From Alphaproteobacteria bacterium (GTDB lineage: Bacteria; Pseudomonadota; Alphaproteobacteria; MPNO01; UBA830): a stretch of DNA of 64,000 nt. Location of the stretch: positions 1,408,001 to 1,472,000 of the forward strand of contig OZ251539.1 in the NCBI GenBank assembly GCA_965243135.1, in the 5' to 3' direction. Below, piece by piece: positions 9,146 to 62,926 of this stretch. The notes under the pieces were generated by a model that was given only the letters and a program-made list of their open reading frames with translations, was not told where the DNA came from and ran no database searches. Numbering within the stretch: the stretch's first letter is position 1; every line of letters begins with the position of its first letter. Both the position numbers and the translations under genes were made by a program.

Positions 9146-9217
9146 CGGCCGTGTCGACGCGGGTGCAGATCCGAAATTGTAAAGCCGAAAGATCTGCAAT
9201 GCTTGCGGCTCCCGGCT

Positions 9218-10765
9218 TCAGGCGGTCTCGAATTCGAATCCAACAATGTTGCGCTCATTCCGGCCGAACTCGATGCCGATCAGCCGGATCGGCACGCCCA
9301 GATGCCGGTACTTGTCCGCGTAGCCGCGCTCCCGCATCTGCGCGAGCGTCCGCCCTTTCGGCTTCCCGTCCACGACCTTGAATTCGTACAGATGCACGCA
9401 TCCCGGAGTTAGCACTGCCATGTCCAGACGCCCTCGGGCGGTCGCTTCCTCGACCCGAACGTCCAGAGCCGCCGCCGCAAAGTGCGAGTAGACGAGGGCC
9501 GCCCAGTAGCCTTCGTAATTCGCAATATCGTTCTTCCGATACCAATCGTGAGGAATGCTCGCGAAGAACGCCTCGAACAACTCCTTCACCCCCTCCGGAT
9601 CGTCCCCCGCCGTCAGCTTGGCCAGATCTGCCTGCCTCGTCGCCTCCCGTCCCGTTACCGGCGCCATCATGCGCAGCAGCCGCCTGTTCAGGCTGAACTT
9701 CACCTCGTGGTTCGGGTAATCCAGCCGGTACAGGCATCCGCCGGCGGCTGCTTCCTCGCTGGCGATGGTCAAGTAGCCGGTCTGGAACAAAAGCGCTTCA
9801 ATCCCGATGTCGTCGACGTCGAAGGCTGAAAGCAGATCGTCGTCCGCGACCAAGCCTTCCAAGGTCGGCGTCGCGACCCGGCACCGTGACAGAAGGTCGA
9901 CGAGGAAGGTCGGCGTACCGCTCTGGAACCAGTAGTTGCCGAACCTGCGGTCGGCAAGCAGCAGCAGGACATCGAACGGATTGTAAACCTTTTCCGGCCC
10001 GAGCCAGTTGTAGCCGTTGTACCAGCGCCGGATCTCGTTCCGATCCAAGCCCTCGAGTTCCGGGGCGAAGACCACGTCCAGCTCTGCGTCCGTGTAGCCG
10101 CAAATGGCCGAAAACTCCGGCGCCAACGTGATGTCGCGCAGGTTGTTCAGGCCCGAGAAAATGCCCGCCTTCGAGAACTTGGTTACGCCGGTAAGAAAAA
10201 CGAAATGAAGCTGCTCGTCGCAGTCCTTGATCATCGCGTAGAAGCCGCGCAGGAAGTCGCGGTTCGCCAGCGCCAGCTCACGGTCGCCGAGCGCGTCCAG
10301 GATCGGCTTGTCGTATTCGTCCACCAGAACGACCACTTTCTGCCCGGTGCGCTCGTGCAGCGTCCTTATCAGGCGGCGGAAACGGATCGACGCCTCGACA
10401 GGGCCCGGATCGACGCCGGCCAGCCGCTCCGTCTCCTCCAGCTGGTCTTCCACATTACTCCGAACGAAGTCCGGGACGCTGAAATCGCCCCCGCCAAAGC
10501 TGATCCGCACGACCGGATGGCGCACCGACCAGTCCCATGCGCCGTGGACGGCGAGGCCCCGGAACAACTCCTCGTTCCCCTCGAACAGCTTCTGCAGCGT
10601 ATCCACCAAGAGGGTCTTGCCGAACCGGCGCGGACGCGACAGGAAGTAGTACTTGCCCCTCTCGACGAGACGGCGCACATGGTCCGTCTTGTCGACGTAG
10701 TAGCAATTCATCCTTCGGATCTCCCGGAGGGAGGTAACGCCGGTCGGAAGCATGCGTTTCATCAT
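9218..10765 (-). CDS. AAA-ATPase_like + PD-(D/E)xK (PDDEXK_9) nuclease domain protein
   Basis: LPTG...YYVDKT, LSRPRRFGKTL, LVDEYDKP, FLTGVTKFSK, YWFQSGTPTFL, LDYPNHEV, GRLDM...YEFK, QMRERGYADKY. Confidence 0.9.
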   Translation of the reverse strand: MMKRMLPTGVTSLREIRRMNCYYVDKTDHVRRLVERGKYYFLSRPRRFGKTLLVDTLQKLFEGNEELFRGLAVHGAWDWSVRHPVVRISFGGGDFSVPDFVRSNVEDQLEETERLAGVDPGPVEASIRFRRLIRTLHERTGQKVVVLVDEYDKPILDALGDRELALANRDFLRGFYAMIKDCDEQLHFVFLTGVTKFSKAGIFSGLNNLRDITLAPEFSAICGYTDAELDVVFAPELEGLDRNEIRRWYNGYNWLGPEKVYNPFDVLLLLADRRFGNYWFQSGTPTFLVDLLSRCRVATPTLEGLVADDDLLSAFDVDDIGIEALLFQTGYLTIASEEAAAGGCLYRLDYPNHEVKFSLNRRLLRMMAPVTGREATRQADLAKLTAGDDPEGVKELFEAFFASIPHDWYRKNDIANYEGYWAALVYSHFAAAALDVRVEEATARGRLDMAVLTPGCVHLYEFKVVDGKPKGRTLAQMRERGYADKYRHLGVPIRLIGIEFGRNERNIVGFEFETA

Positions 10766-11421
10766 CCGAAGAGAGTAGGCCACCGCGCCGGAGCCGTCAA
10801 CGAGGAAGCTCTTCGAGGCGTTTGCGCTGTGCCATTTTTTGTCGGCTGCCGTCCGTTCTACGCCCGCCGCGGGTCGCTCAGGCCGCCCGCGGGCAAGCCC
10901 GCAAGGGTCGCTCAGACGGACGACCGCGGAACGAAAATGGACTACCCGGTTGCTCCGGCACCGCTCGGCGAACTCGGGACGAGCTAGGCCGTGGTCCGAA
11001 CGCGGACGATCGGTTGCGGCCATAGCGGCGGTCAAGATGTCGGAGCCGAGGCCGGAATCGTGCGAGGATCACGCGGCCTATGCCGACGGTGGACGACAAG
11101 AAAATCTTCATCACGGTAGCCGCCGCGAGGGCGGTCGAGAGCGGACTGACCGAGGGTTACCGTCAGCCGGGTCGTAATAGACATGGCGTTCCATGCCTTC
11201 CACGTCGCCCGCCGACTTGCGAGACATGTGCTCGACGGCGACGAGCTCCAAGTTTCGTCCGCCGATTCACGGGATTGAAGGGTCGGGCGGAACCGGCCTA
11301 TTATTTGCCGCCGGAAAACTTTGGGAGAGCTCTTGCATGCCGTTGCGGAACTCTCGTCGCCCTGACGCCGCCTTCGAGGCCGCATTTCGACTGGCGACCT
11401 CGCAAAGTGCTGCGGAGGAGA

Positions 11422-55471: not shown

Positions 55472-55523
55472 CGCACCCGATGCTCTCCTTGACGGTTCCG
55501 GCATGGCGGTCTACCCTCTTGGG

Positions 55524-57058
55524 ATGACGAGACGCATGCTTCCGACAGGCATGTCCTCCCTCCGGACGATCCGCGGGCTGGACTGCTACTACGTCGATAA
55601 GACGGAGCATGTGCGCCGCCTCGTCGAGAGGGGCAGGTACTATTTCCTGTCGCGTCCGCGCCGGTTCGGCAAGACCCTGCTGGTGGACACGCTGCAAGAG
55701 CTGTTCGAGGGAAGCGAGGAACCGTTCCGGGGCCTCGCCATGCACGGCAAGTGGGATTGGTCGGTGCGCCATCCGGTTGTGCGGATCAGCTTCGGCGGGG
55801 GTAATTTCGACTCCCCGGACCTCGTTCGGATATCCGTGGAACGGCAGCTGGCGGCGACGGAGAGGCGCGCCGGCCTCGAACCGGGATCCGTCGAGGTGTC
55901 GAACCGTTTCGGGGAATTGATCGAGGCCTTGCACGAGCGCACCGGGCGGCGCGTGGTCGTGCTGGTGGACGAATACGACAAGCCGATCCTGGACGCGCTC
56001 GGCGACCGGGAACTGGCGCTGGCCAACCGCAACTTCCTGCGCGGCTTCTACGCGATGATCAAGGACAACGACAGGCATCTCCGTTTCGTTTTTCTGACGG
56101 GGGTGAGCAAGTTATCGGGCCTGTTCTCGGGGGCCTGAACAACCTGAACGACATCACGCTGGACGAGCGCTACGGCGCCATCTGCGGCTATACGGACGAC
56201 GAGCTGGACGCGGTGTTCGCCCCGGAACTTGGGGGCCTGGACCGGGGCGAGGTCCGCCGCTGGTACAACGGCTACAACTGGCTCGGACCGGAGAGGGTCT
56301 ACAACCCGCACGACATCCTGCTGCTGTTCGACAAGCGCAGATTCCGCCCATACTGGTTCCAGAGCGGCACGCCGACCTTCCTCGTCGACCTTCTGTCGCG
56401 GCGCCGGGTCTCGGCGCCGGCCCTGGAGGGCATGATCGCGGACGACGACCTGCTGTCGGCCATAGATATCGACCGCATTCCCGTCGAGGCGCTGTTGTTC
56501 CAGACCGGTTATTTGACCATCGCCGACGAGAAGCTGGACGAGGACGCGCCCCTCTACCGGCTGGACTACCCGAACCATGAGGTGAAGCGCAGCCTGAACG
56601 CGCTCCTGCTGGAGGCGATGGCGCCGGACATCGCGGTCGCGGCGGAGAGCCGGGAGCTGCGCCGCCTGATGCGCGAGAACGACTTCGCGGGCCTCGAGCG
56701 GCGGTTCCGGGCGTTCCTGGCGAGCAACGAGTGGTACGCGAACACGGGCATGGCCGGCTACGAAGCCCACTACGCGAGCGTGTTCTACTCGCACTTCGCG
56801 GCGGCGGGGATGGACGTCCGCGCGGAGGAGAGCACGGCGCGCGGCCGTTCGGACCTTGCGGTCCTGCACGGCGGCGGCGTCTACCTGTTCGAGTTCAAGG
56901 TCGCGGACGGGAAGCCGCAAGGCCGGGCGCTGGCGCAGATTCGGGAGCGCGGCTACGCGGACAAGTGCCGGCGTCCGGGCGTGCCGGTCCACCTGATCGG
57001 GGTGGAGTTCGGCCGGGAGGAGCGCAACATCGTCAGGTTCGAGTTCGAGACCGTCTGA
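55524..57058 (+). pseudogene. second AAA-ATPase_like + PDDEXK_9 paralogue, frameshifted
   Basis: Closely similar to 9218-10765 (SRPRRFGKTL, VDEYDKP, YWFQSGTPTFL). The frame breaks at a G-run near 56130 (TCGGGGGCCTGAAC), and there are short in-frame losses (SKLSGLF, FLASNEWY). Confidence 0.85.
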
Positions 57059-57315
57059 AGCCGGGAGCTGTTTCCGTTCGGGCGCAGGCGGCGCCCTCTC
57101 GAGAGGCACCGACCGCCACTGTCGCTTCCTGGAGCCGGGCGGCGACGCCGGCCATGCACCGCGCCGGGCTGATCAGCGCGAACGGCGCGGGCAAGACGCC
57201 GCGGGCGCTCGCAGGAATCTACCGGGGTCGGTCGCGAACGACGGCGCCGGCACTTGCACCCCGCGCGACCGCGACAGTCGCTCGATTTCGAGGCCTCGCC
57301 GGCCGGGGAACGGCG

Positions 57316-57569
57316 TCAGGCGCCCTTTGTTTCCGCCCCGTCGTCCGTCGGCGTCGTTCGTTCGGCGACGGTTTCCGGCGCGGCGGTCCGGCGGCCGGCT
57401 ATCAGCGCCTTGAGCGCCGTCATGTTCTCCTCGTGGCGGCGTTCTTCGGCTTCGCGCTGCTGCTGTGTGGCCGCGTTCGTCGTTGGTGCGGACGCCAAAC
57501 GCCGACGGCCGCGAGGACGGCCGCGAGCGCGTTGGCGGAAGCGATGGCGAGGTTAGCGAAGGCAGTCAT
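57316..57569 (-). pseudogene. small single-TM protein, apparently frameshifted
   Basis: RBS GAAAGGA, then MTAFANLAIASANALAAVLAAVGVW, continuing in another frame as NAATQQQREAEERRHEENMTALKALIA. Confidence 0.4.
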
Positions 57570-57843
57570 GAGCGTCCTTTCCGGAGACGGGAGACAGTAT
57601 CCGCGGTGCCGATCGTCAAGAGAGACGCTTGCGCCAGGGCGGGAACGGGGCGGTGGCGTTCATTGCCGGGCTCCGTCCTCGAGGCGGCGGCAGGGGCGGC
57701 GCGCGCCGCAAGCGGCGAAACGCCTGAACTCCAGGCTGCGGTTCCGTCGAACGGGAGCGTCGTCCGGTCGAGCGAGGCGGACTTCCGCCGTCGAATCTCC
57801 AGAGTTCGCTCGAAGCCGTGGGCGGCTCGCGAAAGCCTGAGGA

Positions 57844-57929
57844 AACCCGGAAACGCAACGCAAAATCACCGTGGGCCTGCCCTGCGCCGGGACTGGAACA
57901 AGCAGGTCACCCTGCGACCGAACGCTTGC
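57844..57929 (+). mobile_element. isolated decayed right end of the IS66/DUF4338 element
   Basis: CCCTGCGCCGGGACTGGA...TCACCCTGCGACCGAACGCTTGC matches the reverse complement of 59522-59587 (…CCCTGCGCCGGGACTGGA…TCACCCCACGACCGAACGCTTAC). Confidence 0.75.
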
Positions 57930-58305: not shown

Positions 58306-59548
58306 GAGTTCGGTTCAAAATTCCTGGTCGTAGATTTTCCATCTCCTTGTTTGGCTTTATCGAATATTTTGCGATTTGACGACCGGGCGAAGATTTGCGA
58401 TTGAGGATGATGTCTATTCCTACTGGAGGAAATTCCGCATGACGGAGATTGGAAAATCGGTGCCGCCTGCCGGAGCGGAATTCTGCGGGCGTTGCCGCTG
58501 CGGCGGGGATGGCGTCCGTTCGTGACGTCGATGGGGTCGACGCGACTGTCTCCGTTTCGGTTGCCGGAAGATGCGCTTGTCTTTCAGGCGAAGGAGAGAC
58601 GTGGCTCGGAAGCCATGGTTTTTCCGCAGGCCGGACAACGGATGACGTACGGCGATTGGCACGAGCGTGCCCGCAGTCTCGCGCGAGGGCTGGTCGATCT
58701 GGGTTTTCGACCGGGAGACCACATCGCGATCCTTGCCGAAAGCCGCGTCGAATGGCCGGTTGCGCAGATGGCCATCGCGATGATGGGCGGCGTCATGGTT
58801 CCGCTGAACACGCATTACCGGCGCGACGATCTGCGGTACGCGCTGTCGCATTCGCGAACGAAATGCCTCTTCCTGTCGACGGAATTTCGCGGCAACCGCT
58901 ATCTTGAAACGGTCCTTGCGCTGCTTCCCGAACTTGAGCATCTGCGAACGCTGGTGCCGTTCGACGAACGCGACGCGCATTCTTATGACGACCTGATCGC
59001 CAAGGGCGCGCGAAGCGATGCCGGGCTTCCGCGGGTTTCTCCGGATTCTATCGCGTCCCTTCAATACACTTCCGGCACGACCGGCTTTCCCAAAGGGGCG
59101 CTGCTCACCCATGCCGGGATGCTCGCCAACGCCTGGGGAATTTCCGGACGCCTGAGAGTGTCCGAACGCGACAGATGGACGTCGATCATCCCGCTGTTCC
59201 ACTGCGCCGGGTGCATCATGTGCGTTCTCGGAACCTTGCAGCGCGGGGCCTGCTACGTCGGCGCGCCCGCCTTCGATCCGCGTGCGACGTTCGAGTTGGT
59301 GGAGACCGAAAAGTGCACCTTGCTTTCCGGCGTGCCGACCTCGCACATCGCCATGCTCGAACATCCCGATCGCGAAAAATACGACCTTTCGACGCTGCGC
59401 GCGGGAACCTGCGGCGGAGCGGACACGGATCCGGCGCTGCTGCGGGAATGCGCCCGCGCCTTTCCGTTGCCGGGCGTCGTTCAGGTGTACGGTCAGACGG
59501 AGGCGAGCACCCTGATCAGCCGTAAGCGTTCGGTCGTGGGGTGATGGC

Positions 59549-60421
59549 CTATTCATTGAGGAGCCGCCTCCAGTCCCGGCGCAGGGGTTTCAGCCAGATG
59601 TCCTTGACCGGGAGAGCGCGTTCTTTCCGGGTATCGAGCTTGCCGCGGCCCTGCGTTTTGCCGACCTTGGTCCAGTTGGCGGCCCGGTAGCAGGTTCCTT
59701 CGAAGCGCGTGCTCTCGCAGAAGGTCTCCATCAGGGCCGGGCGCAACGCGTAGCGGCCTTCCCAATCGTCGGGCAGGCGACATTCAACCATGGCAAGGAT
59801 GCAGGACGCGAGGTTTTTGATCCGGACCCACGGCAAGATCAGGAACCTTGCATTGTTGACCACGAGAGGCAGGTTGCGGCGGCGGGTCTCGGGATCCCAC
59901 CCGACAAGCTTGTCCCGCGGCGCGATCTTCCAGGCCGCGGCGCCGAAGCCGAGGACGGCGAGGGGTTCGCCTCCGGCGGCCCGAACGAAGTATCGCATCT
60001 GCGCGCCGGGCAGCGTCGAATAGCCGAGATAGTGGTAGCGAGCGACGAACTCGTTCCAGAGGCGGCCTTCGCCCGCGTTCCGGACGGGCTCAACGGCGAC
60101 GGGTTGGATATCGGCGAGACGCTCGGGGGTCGGGAACGGGGGCCTGTCGGTCGCGGGACCGGGCACGAGCGGACGGCGGACGACCGGCGCGCGCCTTGGC
60201 GGCGGCAAGACGATCACGCCGTCGCGATGCATGCGCAACATGGCGACGCGCGCGCTCATATCCTTTAGGCCGCCGTCGGGCTTGCGCCAGTCGAGGCGGC
60301 GGCAGACCTCCCGCGACAGCGCCCGGCGGTGGAGGCCGCCCCTCGCGATCAGGCCGCGGATCATGTCGACCTCGTCCTCGGAGAAGTCGCGCCCGCAGTA
60401 GCGGCGGGGGCTGCCGCTCAC
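59549..60421 (-). CDS. DUF4338 domain protein (DruA-like)
   Basis: RYCGR..., ALSREVC..LDWR, LWNEFVARYHYLGY, GAQMRY, RDKLVGW, VVNNARFLILPWV, ETF, GTCYRAANW..VG.TQGRG. GTG overlaps the transposase stop. Confidence 0.88.
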   Translation of the reverse strand: MSGSPRRYCGRDFSEDEVDMIRGLIARGGLHRRALSREVCRRLDWRKPDGGLKDMSARVAMLRMHRDGVIVLPPPRRAPVVRRPLVPGPATDRPPFPTPERLADIQPVAVEPVRNAGEGRLWNEFVARYHYLGYSTLPGAQMRYFVRAAGGEPLAVLGFGAAAWKIAPRDKLVGWDPETRRRNLPLVVNNARFLILPWVRIKNLASCILAMVECRLPDDWEGRYALRPALMETFCESTRFEGTCYRAANWTKVGKTQGRGKLDTRKERALPVKDIWLKPLRRDWRRLLNE

Positions 60422-62064
60422 GGTCCTTGGGGGAGAGCGGGACGCCAGGAGCGGAGACGCTCCTCGCCTGCGCCCCACGGCAGCCAGGCAGCAGGGCCTT
60501 CGGGCGGCGGACCGCGATGCCGGGCGCAGGCATCGAGATAACCGAGTAGCCAGCGGTACGGCGAGACGCCGGCCATCTCGAGCGTGCCGAAGATGGAATA
60601 GAGCATGCCCGCCAACTGCGCTCCGTCCACGCTATGCGACCCGAACGAGAGCTTCCGGCCGATCGCGAGGCCGCGCAGGCCGCGTTCGGCGGGGTTGTTG
60701 TCCATGGGAACGTCTGCGTTGTCGACGAACACTGTCAGGCCGTCGCGGTGGCGTAGCAGGGAGTCCAGAGGGCCGCGTTGCGCCGCGCTCTCCGGAAGCG
60801 CGTCCCGTGCCTTTTTCGCCGCCGCGAAGAACGCTCCGGCGAATCTCGCGAGCCGCCGCTGGGCGGCGGCGTTGCCCGGACACGCCAGACGCCTGGCGTT
60901 GAGTCGGTACAATGCCGCAATGTGACGAAGCCATTTTTGGGCGAACTTCGCGAGGTTCGGGTAGCCGGTCTCAAGGTTGATGAAGTCCCGTCTGGCATGG
61001 ACCCAACAATATGAAAGGACGATGCACCCTTCCATGACGCGCGCCAGCTTCCGGTAGGCGGAGTAGCGGTCGCAGACCAGGTGAGCCGCCTGTTCGGGCG
61101 AGCCGAGCCCCCTGAACAGTTCAAGGGCGGCTTCCGCGCTGCGCGACGGCAGAATAACGATGCGAACCGCGTCCGCCGACCGGGCGATCCATGCCCAGGC
61201 GCGAGCGTTGCCGCCGTCTTCTTCGCCCAACTCCCGTATCCACCACCCTGTTTCGTCGCCGTGAACGACCGGCGCCTCCGACAGGCGCCGGGAGATCTCA
61301 TCGTCGAGCGGCTCGAACAGTCGCAGGAATCCCCGCTGAGCGTCCGCCAACGTGCCGGGCGCAATGGCAAGCCCGTGCTGACCCAGCGCGCGGCAGACCG
61401 AGCGCAACGGACGGTGCAGGCCGTACCTCTCCGCCAGGACGTACGCCCAGACGGAAACTCCGTACCGAGTGTTCGGAAACAGCCGCGCCGGAGCCGGGCC
61501 GACGGCCTCCTTTTCCGGTCGGCAGGTACAGGTCGGGCGCAGCCGCTTCCGTCGAATCCTCCGGACATAGGTGACGGTCCTGGTCTCGATGAGATCCGTG
61601 TCCTTCCAACCGTTCGAGACCCAGGCCTTGCCGCAGTCCGGACACGTGCGCTCGTCCGGAAGCGACTCCTCCTCGCGAACGGGCAGCTCGGGGTGCGGCG
61701 TGCGGCCGTGCGACGGCGTTCCCTGACTGCGCCCCCGGCGTCGACCGGTTGCCGTAGGCTGCCGCTCGCTGCGGCGCCCGAACAACTCCCGGGCAAACCT
61801 GCGGCTGCGGGACTTCAGACTCTCGTTCTCTGCCGTCTCTCGGGGCGGCGCCTCGCGTCTCTTTTTCAGGATTCTAATCAGCGCCATCGCCCGGTGGAAA
61901 GCTCCCTGCCACCTCTCGGCGTCGCGGCGAAACTTCTCCGCTTTATCGAGTGCGCTTTCCAGCGCCTGGCAGAGAGCCGCATTCGCTCGGCATGCCGCAG
62001 CCAGAGCTTGGCCGTCGCCCGACAGCTCGGTCCCGGAAAGCGTGCGTGCAGATTCGACCGCCAT
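60418..62064 (-). CDS. tnpC: IS66 family DDE transposase (TnpC)
   Basis: Coiled coil, LFGRRSE, Zn-ribbon CPDCG...CTC, HGDETGW, VCDRYSAY, CWVHARRDF, DNNPAERGLR, IGRK. Confidence 0.92.
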   Translation of the reverse strand: MAVESARTLSGTELSGDGQALAAACRANAALCQALESALDKAEKFRRDAERWQGAFHRAMALIRILKKRREAPPRETAENESLKSRSRRFARELFGRRSERQPTATGRRRGRSQGTPSHGRTPHPELPVREEESLPDERTCPDCGKAWVSNGWKDTDLIETRTVTYVRRIRRKRLRPTCTCRPEKEAVGPAPARLFPNTRYGVSVWAYVLAERYGLHRPLRSVCRALGQHGLAIAPGTLADAQRGFLRLFEPLDDEISRRLSEAPVVHGDETGWWIRELGEEDGGNARAWAWIARSADAVRIVILPSRSAEAALELFRGLGSPEQAAHLVCDRYSAYRKLARVMEGCIVLSYCWVHARRDFINLETGYPNLAKFAQKWLRHIAALYRLNARRLACPGNAAAQRRLARFAGAFFAAAKKARDALPESAAQRGPLDSLLRHRDGLTVFVDNADVPMDNNPAERGLRGLAIGRKLSFGSHSVDGAQLAGMLYSIFGTLEMAGVSPYRWLLGYLDACARHRGPPPEGPAAWLPWGAGEERLRSWRPALPQGP

Positions 62065-62926
62065 GGCAGCCGTATACAAGAACAAAAGAAGAGTGTCCAG
62101 GCCTGGGCGATTCGCCTGGCTCGACAGCCCGCTTCGCAACCGAACGCTTACTCTCCGGGACTTCGCGAGAAACCTGTTGCCGGGTGCCAACCAGAGGGGC
62201 GGCGTAGGCCGCGGCAGTACCCGAAACGAACGCGCCCTCCCGGTCAAGGACGTCTGGTTGAAGCCCCTGCCTGGAGGCAGGCCTCAACGTCGCCACCCCA
62301 CGACCGAACGCTTACGATCAGCCTTGCGGATTGCGAGGCTCCGCAGCGGTTCGAGACTTGCGGCCCGCCGCTGCCGGGGGCCGAGGTCAGGATTGCCGAT
62401 CCGGCGACCGGGGAGGAACTTCCCGTCGGCGAAATCGGCCAGATAGAAACCCGGGGGCCGATGGTCATGCGCGGATATTTCGACAATCCGGAGGCCACTC
62501 GAGAAACCATCGGCGAGGACGGCTGGATGCGGACGGGCGATCTCGGCCGCCTGACGCCCGACGGAAATATCGTCGTCGCCGGCGGTCGCCTTCGCGACAT
62601 GATCATTCGCGGCGGCGAGAACGTCTATCCCGTCGAGATCGAAAACACGCTTCGCGCGCATCCGGCGGTTTCCGACATCGCCGCGTTCGGACTTCCCGAC
62701 AGGTATTACGGCGAAACGGTCGCCGCGGCCGTCTCGCTGGCCGCGGAAGCGTCGGCCGAGGAACTCCGGCGCTACTGCGGAAGGCGAATTGCCCGTTTCA
62801 AGCTTCCGGCGCGGTTTTACCGCGTCGACTCGTTCCCTCTGACGGCCAGCGGCAAGATCAGAAAGGCCGAGTTGCAGGAACTGGCGCGAGCGGAACGGCT
62901 CGAGGTCCTCGAATGATGCGGGCAGG

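Follow-up and report, generated by a model that had tools for sequence, protein, structure and literature searches.

A 64,000-nucleotide stretch of an Alphaproteobacteria bacterium genome (contig OZ251539.1, positions 1,408,001 to 1,472,000; here called the window, in whose numbering positions are given) carries an insertion sequence (IS) with two genes, tnpC, encoding an IS66-family transposase, and a gene for a DUF4338 (PF14236) protein. The element is an autonomous and active member of the IS66 family, of the kind with a single transposase, to which an optional second gene has been added, and is itself a fresh variant within that already known family. A copy captured from its right end now serves as the left end. 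The second gene is predicted from structural modeling to encode a GNAT-fold enzyme, with phage Mu Mom as its nearest solved relative and the catalytic residues kept. We read it as an optional, co-expressed adenine-modifying enzyme that would shield or mark the transposon DNA, and we give that statement as a whole a probability of about one half.

The boundaries of the element were set by the target-site duplication (TSD) and the repeated ends. Three GTAAGCG ends are present at the locus, at 59522, 62151 and 62315. The 8-bp duplication GATCAGCC lies directly before 59522 and directly after 62315, while the sequence directly after 62151 is TCTCCGGG, with no duplication of GATCAGCC there. The mobile unit is therefore 59522-62315 on the minus strand, a length of 2794 bp, with perfect terminal inverted repeats (IRs) of 22 bp that start with GTAAGCG. 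An earlier reading made from the sequence alone (the sequence-only reading) had ended the element at 62151. The TSD, the 22-bp IRs, the genomic copies and the empty site described below all give 62315; the target duplication that it had noted is indeed perfect, but flanks 59522 and 62315. With 59522-62315 excised, an acyl-CoA synthetase frame of 540 codons is open again. Excision to 62151 does not restore this frame, and that end, which also disagrees with the TSD and the empty site, was rejected.

The 6.10-Mb genome contains eight copies of the unit that are 100% identical, and all eight have their own perfect 8-bp duplication at ends of the 59522/62315 type. The empty site, with 59513 joined to 62316, is present in contigs of two runs: X1, at depth 2.6, which may be the source sample, and X6, at depth 5.7, which is from a sponge metagenome of another study. 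The skip of 2802 equals 2794 + 8, with 8 ambiguous bases. Contigs of run X4 have other flanks at both 59522 and 62315. Given the identical copies with their own TSDs and the empty-site contigs, the element is active and its insertion at this site is not fixed in the population. The insertion had been called recent, which is upheld. Among the joints listed for contigs of four runs, in which rare forms are lost, none linked the two ends of the element into a circle. No target consensus was visible across the eight insertion sites, and an Rfam search gave no match. A TSD-bounded copy at C1:3599666-3602524 of this genome (G000) has mixed ends, with left and right IRs from different sub-lineages, and the IR variants are therefore cross-compatible. 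In genome G441 (C1:4077825-4097618) a related element is present five times or more in a row with a spacing of ~3.57 kb, which suggests tandem amplification or insertion of the element next to itself.

The 164 bp at 62152-62315 repeat, inverted and with deletions, the 3' end of DUF4338 plus the right IR. The segment matches the right end over 112 nt at 77%, and 17/23 residues of its translation are identical. The inner, older left end (62139-62151) is a terminus in none of its nine genomic matches, in all of which the outer segment precedes it. In relatives within this genome the older left end is further decayed or lost, and a third lineage here has retained a distinct true left end. The sequence-only reading had counted two further end relics in the window that keep the 3' end of DUF4338. 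One of these, 62152-62315, is in fact the left end of the element itself; the other, at 57880-57929, belongs to a non-autonomous derivative, whose mutated right end keeps similarity over ~50 nt only.

Similar arrangements also occur outside this genome. In three lineages the left tip equals the right tip of the same lineage over 93, 132 and 148 bp, the identity extending to 201 bp at 99.5% in the 148-bp lineage, and in all three the copied right tip is joined directly before the promoter. An inverted DUF4338 tail is likewise present at five copies in genome G444. In the remaining lineages bounded by TSDs the IRs are perfect over 20-30 bp. Because each captured copy matches the right end of its own lineage, end capture recurs. 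We infer that the simplest route is the inverted insertion of one copy ~190 bp from the right end of a sister. Such an insertion, into the 3' end of the sister copy, would leave two right ends that then become the preferred pair. Capture could have passed through composite formation or through template switching between paired ends. In Mos1, a version built with two 3' ends has a higher activity.

TnpC is matched by PF03050 at E 1.9e-50, and its 266 bits for NCBIfam NF033517 exceed the cut-off of 180. Its D270, D332 and E460 are invariant across 18 aligned relatives, and the zinc-finger cysteines are present. The element thus has the features of IS66 membership, namely a TnpC-type DDE transposase, IRs starting with GTAA and an 8-bp duplication. 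No open reading frame (ORF) for tnpA or tnpB lies within the unit, in which only 251 bp separate the terminus from the tnpC ATG. PF05717 (tnpB) was found at control canonical IS66 loci, upstream of tnpC in the six checked, and is absent in five TnpC frames of the present clade. Canonical IS66 TnpC proteins are 24-33% identical to this one and form a separate branch of the tree, and DUF4338 was found at 0/29 canonical loci, several of which are truncated. Four TnpC frames (L006, L024, L029 and L051) are extended at the N-terminus by long coiled coils and reach ~800-860 codons, compared with the 548 aa of the present TnpC.

A motif TGG(A/T)(A/C)A-17-TANNNN precedes the start codon by 6-7 nt in 16/17 elements with ATG, and in the seventeenth with GTG. 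It suggests, from sequence comparison, a weak promoter giving a leaderless transcript, although a scan with the strict promoter consensus did not flag TGGACA-17-TATACG. Many dead copies of different sub-lineages in this genome have the putative -10 box damaged by short deletions (left ends at C1: 1337174, 1391908, 2241259, 4187895, 5957131, 3940776, 4531468, 5953848 and 2841639). Since the box contains an AT step, this damage may be merely the deletion signature described below.

DUF4338 begins at a GTG that overlaps the tnpC stop as GTGA, and its own stop is 27 nt from the end of the element. On these two intact and coupled ORFs the frames and domain matches confirm the sequence-only reading. 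The overlap, as RTGA, is present in all 17 elements examined. In a genome scan tnpC was directly upstream of DUF4338 in 75/75 loci kept; these were taken from the best 80 of 440 confirmed matches, and many are copies within one genome. Twenty-eight of the 75 are bounded by IRs and an 8-bp duplication (with at most one mismatch). PF03050 and PF14236 occur within one protein in 114 of the best 120 long homologues (1009 found), and the TnpC-DUF4338 fusions include a coherent family of ~809 aa. DUF4338 is further fused N-terminally to transposase domains of the ISAs1, Tn5/IS50, IS4, IS630-like and ISAzo13 types, and 13/17 of the non-IS66 DUF4338 frames examined in this genome share their frame with a transposase domain. 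The claim that DUF4338 is integral to the IS family is upheld by its constant company with tnpC and by the fusions, but in the wider clade the gene is optional, as shown below.

The DUF4338 family comprises 12,146 clusters at 50% identity (E <= 0.001), distant relatives included. In 250 other genomes of the phylum PF14236 was present in 15; seven of these cases are linked to transposases, four are of the long DruA type and four are unresolved. Relatives of the host have a match in 6/40. Three of the seven transposase-linked cases (L119, L121 and L136), which belong to a distant IS66 branch, have the reversed order with DUF4338 upstream of tnpC, suggesting an independent recruitment. In P0377, P0379 and P0298 the partner of DUF4338 is instead an adenylate/guanylate cyclase, a set of MORN repeats or DUF6788, and these joins may be chimeras of gene calling. 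At one locus (L097, NZ_CP020372.1:282572-287344) a stand-alone DUF4338 gene is followed by an integrase and an IS91-family transposase, the latter a possible further partner.

The ratio of nonsynonymous to synonymous substitution rates (dN/dS) of DUF4338 is 0.15-0.32 against six copies in this genome. For 28 pairs among eight related elements it is 0.15-0.30, compared with 0.33-0.63 for tnpC. By this comparison the gene is under purifying selection and better conserved than the transposase.

Scanning metagenomes with an alignment of TnpC only gave 79 loci at ~30-43% identity. DUF4338 lies downstream in 34 (33 scored by script plus L178, misfiled owing to a second tnpC), is not found within at least 300 nt in 28, and 17 loci are too short to assess. 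It is thus lacking in 28/62 assessable close relatives. Thirteen of the 28 have matching IRs around 1.85-2.07 kb that hold one ORF, with no space for tnpA or tnpB. No target duplication was seen for the DUF4338-less metagenomic elements, nor for 12 DUF4338-bearing control loci, so the mobility of the former is deduced from their intact ORFs and matching IRs. In a quick IQ-TREE tree (78 rows, short loci left out, five canonical outgroups) the presence of DUF4338 changes six times, at least three of which are forced by branches of 95 or above, against a shuffled mean of 22; such counts cannot separate loss from gain. In the nearest clade DUF4338 is present in 16/16 assessable rows, 14 of them selected via DUF4338. 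That the closest tnpC relatives mostly lack it is therefore not the case in the nearest clade and is nearly so in the wider one. DUF4338 had been described as standing in place of tnpA and tnpB, which does not hold. The clade is without these genes regardless of DUF4338, so that it is a tnpA/tnpB-free branch on which DUF4338 is an add-on, and on these comparisons the gene appears to be dispensable for mobility.

The AlphaFold2 model of the DUF4338 protein (pLDDT 89.9) comprises a small helical N-terminal domain (residues ~1-75), a proline-rich linker and a Mom-like GNAT domain (~105-290). The sequence-only reading had guessed at a GNAT-like fold, and both structural searches agree, matching GNATs with Mu Mom (8bv8) in first place. 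Foldseek gave E 1.7e-5 and VIA-align Z 14.9, with a root-mean-square deviation of 3.4 Å over 165 residues (next GNAT, Z 12.4). PHROG 1384 (Mom-like) was matched by 98/103 DUF4338 homologues, with a best E of 1.4e-6. We aligned profiles of 86 diverse DUF4338 domains and 111 Mom proteins. Mom H58, Y59, R111 and S124 pair with H130 (86/86), Y131 (70/86), R192 (86/86) and S206 (84/86), and D149, R151 and Y159 with E/D236 (79/86), R239 (64/86) and Y245 (84/86). Only 4/86 of the DUF4338 domains have the usual acetyl-CoA loop, R/QxxGxG/A. A recent study of Mom reports that these seven residues are important for activity and shows that Mom takes glycine from Gly-tRNA and attaches it to N6 of adenine in double-stranded DNA (PMC13219725); none of its passages mentions DUF4338 or transposition.

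Other searches were less telling. The DUF4338 protein did not match Pfam PF25680 (Mom), for which three relatives score 21.5-22 bits (cut-off 27.1). PDB sequence searches with the single protein and with a profile found nothing significant, and a single-sequence hhalign against Mom was not significant. In the Atlas the GNAT domain is close to viral clusters containing Mom at 0.87-0.89, a lead only, and the N-terminal domain matched unnamed clusters only. BFVD matches are mostly uncharacterized phage GNATs, with one Mom at rank 11.

How these parts would work together can be set out as follows. TnpC moves the unit by means of two right-type 22-bp IRs, duplicating 8 bp of the target, as the copies and their duplications show. 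With a weak leaderless promoter and translational coupling, DUF4338 would be made only alongside the transposase, and fusions would have the same effect elsewhere; it is the gene overlap and the fusions that argue for this co-production. The enzyme, acting like Mom, might then place an aminoacyl group, probably from a charged tRNA, onto adenine N6 of double-stranded DNA, as its fold and Mom-type residues suggest. Its helical N-terminal domain, or a tether to the transposase, may keep it close to the element. The least certain step is the last, in which the mark would protect the transposon DNA, or the vehicle that carries it, against nucleases of the host, restriction enzymes among them. Shielding would help the element to spread and be unneeded for the chemistry of transposition, which would explain the repeated loss of DUF4338 between lineages. 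We favor it because it is the role of Mom, would be useful to a transposase of any family and is compatible with repeated loss. More tentatively, and at somewhat less than even odds, several unrelated IS families would have independently recruited one Mom-like tRNA-dependent DNA hypermodifier that is delivered in cis and marks their own DNA during or after the jump, together with recurrent end capture.

A number of results weigh against an adenine-modifying, shielding enzyme. The Foldseek ranks are close, a dopamine acetyltransferase following at E 2.2e-5. The profile alignment with Mom is weak when taken alone (hhalign probability 15%, E 0.0017), and cross searches with DUF4338 and Mom hidden Markov models barely reach E 0.003. 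The essential helix-turn-helix-like insertion of Mom (175-209) is largely absent, falling in a 21-residue alignment gap. The N-terminal domain has a pLDDT of 53 in a single-sequence model and a best structural match of Z 4.7, and because of this low confidence and the lack of a higher match its binding of DNA is put forward only as a supposition. In deeper pairs the dN/dS of DUF4338 rises to 0.36-0.76, although dS is unreliable there. There were no matches in 50,697 phages and two in 72,556 plasmids, in collections that favor cultured hosts; this rarity weighs against shielding on vectors, where a gene that protects DNA on entry might be expected. The activity of the enzyme, its substrate and its expression are all predicted.

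The rarity on phages and plasmids would fit a regulatory mark, made by the same chemistry, by which element ends or new copies are tagged so as to tune transposition frequency, choice of ends or target immunity. Dam methylation tunes IS10 and IS50 likewise. The tight coupling, the repeated fusion to unrelated transposases, the separate N-terminal helical domain and a conservation stronger than that of the transposase are all in keeping with such a role. Yet complete elements without DUF4338 persist in several sub-clades, and relatives evidently insert into sister copies, which speaks against strong target immunity; we regard this explanation as possible but rather unlikely. An improbable one is that the GNAT acylates a protein or RNA (tRNA, the transposase or a factor of the host) and so serves for regulation or as a mild addiction toxin. 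The GNATs matched at ranks below Mom mostly have proteins or small molecules as substrates, and a published account already terms DUF4338 a GNAT, in a fusion to DndF, and interprets it as possibly protein-targeting (PMC10853773). Against this, the Mom-specific residues are kept, the unit has no antitoxin gene and eight intact copies are tolerated.

The sequence-only reading had proposed either a transposition accessory or regulator, or a defense cargo. The latter has become the weaker idea, and an optional modifying enzyme is favored. A DruA-like anti-phage passenger, kept for the benefit of the host, would account for a gene that is dispensable for mobility, under purifying selection and shares PF14236 with Druantia DruA. 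However, PADLOC DruA models give the DUF4338 protein 17.8 and 12.9 bits over ~50 residues, compared with 369-967 bits for the four long DruA-type proteins, and these align with it over ~60 residues only, without the HY motif there. In the 250-genome sample the short form accompanies transposases in seven genomes and the long form lacks a transposase domain in four. No Dru partner genes lie within the two-gene unit, which is the part that was searched for DruE, and the eight copies stand at unrelated sites; in-frame fusion to several transposase families would also be unusual for a passenger. The protein of the element is thus by sequence distinct from defense-type DruA, and the chance of a defense cargo seems small. 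Smaller still is that of an essential accessory standing in for TnpA and TnpB, which we consider very improbable. DUF4338 is always present in the nearest clade and the element has neither gene, yet the relatives without DUF4338 include the 13 single-ORF elements, and a domain search found no likeness of the DUF4338 protein to TnpA or TnpB.

Table 1. Features of the element and its insertion site in the window.
Feature	Position	Strand	Basis
Whole mobile unit, 2794 bp, 8 identical copies	59522..62315	-	genome copies, TSDs, empty site
Right terminal IR, 22 bp, GTAAGCG start, perfect match to left tip	59522..59543	-	repeat pairing
Captured right end, now working left end	62152..62315	+	inverted similarity to DUF4338 3' end and right IR
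Inner, older left end, 13-bp match to IR	62139..62151	-	repeat pairing, genome matches
tnpC, IS66-family DDE transposase, 548 aa	60418..62064	-	PF03050, NF033517
DUF4338/PF14236 gene, 290 aa	59549..60421	-	PF14236 'DruA', E 3.7e-43
Putative promoter TGGACA-17 nt-TATACG	62071..62099	-	6 nt before tnpC ATG
Target-site duplication GATCAGCC, first copy	59514..59521	+	TSD comparison, empty-site joint
Target-site duplication GATCAGCC, second copy	62316..62323	+	TSD comparison
Host acyl-CoA synthetase gene split by the insertion, 5' part (PF00501)	58492..59521	+	domain search, frame restoration
Host acyl-CoA synthetase gene split by the insertion, 3' part (end of PF00501, PF13193)	62324..62916	+	domain search, frame restoration

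Decayed copies of this IS have a marked deletion signature. Relative to the active element 12 alignments contain 205 deletions and 14 insertions, and 164 of the 205 deletions are of 5 or 6 bp. Among 189 distinct events, 130 have their start at 5'-AT on one strand, against an expectation of 19; ATC is frequent there and ATG rare, and microhomology is not in excess. Deletions of 5-6 bp dominate other repeat families of this genome too, with or without DUF4338 (example decayed repeats at C1: 1389348-1391908, 236167-238061 and 531532-533583). The idea that they are a footprint of the DUF4338 enzyme was not supported, as DUF4338-less repeats in this genome are hit as well, and the signature was not counted as evidence for the enzyme. 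Genome G002, of the same genus, has deletions of 5-7 bp with a looser anchor (loci L267-L286), and G004 has a few. In five unrelated DUF4338-rich genomes there was one gap of 5-7 bp in ~99 kb of diverged alignments, a weak test since few of the copies are true relics; controls without DUF4338 had near-identical repeats only. The signature looks like a trait of the host lineage, and suggests a lineage-specific lesion or repair pathway.

Two further repeat families are represented in the window. A partial copy at 57255-57929 on the minus strand, with its terminus mutated to GCAAGCG, belongs to a transposase-less cassette family in which the ends of this IS family surround a small ORF. Complete TSD-bounded members lie at C1:247803-249281, 4556273-4557015 and 956485-959057 of this genome, which also has an ends-only element of 59 bp at C1:2294699-2294757. 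A gene with AAA-ATPase (PF09820) and PD-(D/E)XK (PF08011) domains, split into two frames, occupies 55503-57058 on the plus strand and occurs again at 9217-10792; this genome contains far more than 100 members of its family.

The common view of IS elements is that they carry genes for transposition and no more than passengers besides. A literature search, with ISfinder/TnPedia and supplements outside its scope, found no report linking DUF4338/PF14236 or a Mom-like gene to transposases. What is new here is the corrected and read-supported boundary, the captured end in all eight active copies and the test of dispensability centered on TnpC. A predicted Mom-like enzyme family travels with, or fused to, several unrelated transposases, and appears better conserved than they are. 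If it does modify DNA, transposons would have an epigenetic or anti-restriction arm of their own, the first class of IS-encoded DNA base modification, and the PF14236 fold common to Druantia DruA would gain a biochemical activity, which provides a testable lead for that unexplained protein. An assay is available because the chemistry of Mom has recently been solved (PMC13219725). Annotations of PF14236 as 'DruA' should be treated with caution, as they often flag transposons and not defense systems. Pairs with and without DUF4338 in one TnpC clade, and the layout with two right ends, offer comparisons for the poorly characterized mechanism of IS66.

Several known systems can be compared with the element. 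Composite and inside-out transposons likewise gain a terminus from the end of a neighboring copy. Here, however, capture is natural, recurs in several lineages and carries along 93-201 bp from the 3' end of DUF4338; in all active copies of this genome the original left end has been replaced. Druantia is an operon with the DruE helicase and other Dru genes. Its DruA (PADLOC PDLC00001/2) shares with the DUF4338 protein a PF14236 match above the cut-off and ~60 residues of the GNAT core, yet has 400-700+ aa compared with 290 aa here, where DUF4338 is linked to a transposase. The long DruA-type proteins L128, L129, L130 and L137 have 702 to ~1300 aa; two have a C-terminal SspF/DndF-like NTPase, and in all four a large insertion interrupts the PF14236 match, which lacks the HY motif. 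With Mom (8bv8, PF25680) the DUF4338 set shares the GNAT fold, matches to the seven activity residues and the lack of a canonical acetyl-CoA loop. It differs in its low identity (14-16%), an extra N-terminal helical domain and its residence in ISs.

Within IS66, canonical three-gene elements have the TnpC family, the 8-bp duplication and the terminal GTAA in common with this one, and differ in having tnpA and tnpB upstream of tnpC. In canonical members such as IS679 the tnpA, tnpB and tnpC genes are all required. The single-ORF ISBst12 group, exemplified by ISDge4, would be closer, judging by its published description (PMC12898284). It has the same IS66-type DDE transposase, GTAA-type ends, 8-bp duplication and lack of tnpA and tnpB. 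As described, ISDge4 has imperfect IRs and a transposase of 449 aa, compared with perfect IRs of 20-30 bp and a TnpC of 548 aa here. Our DUF4338-less relatives do fit the single-ORF type of the ISBst12 group, while the present element departs from it in its second ORF, the coupled GNAT gene, and in a left end replaced by a copy of the right.

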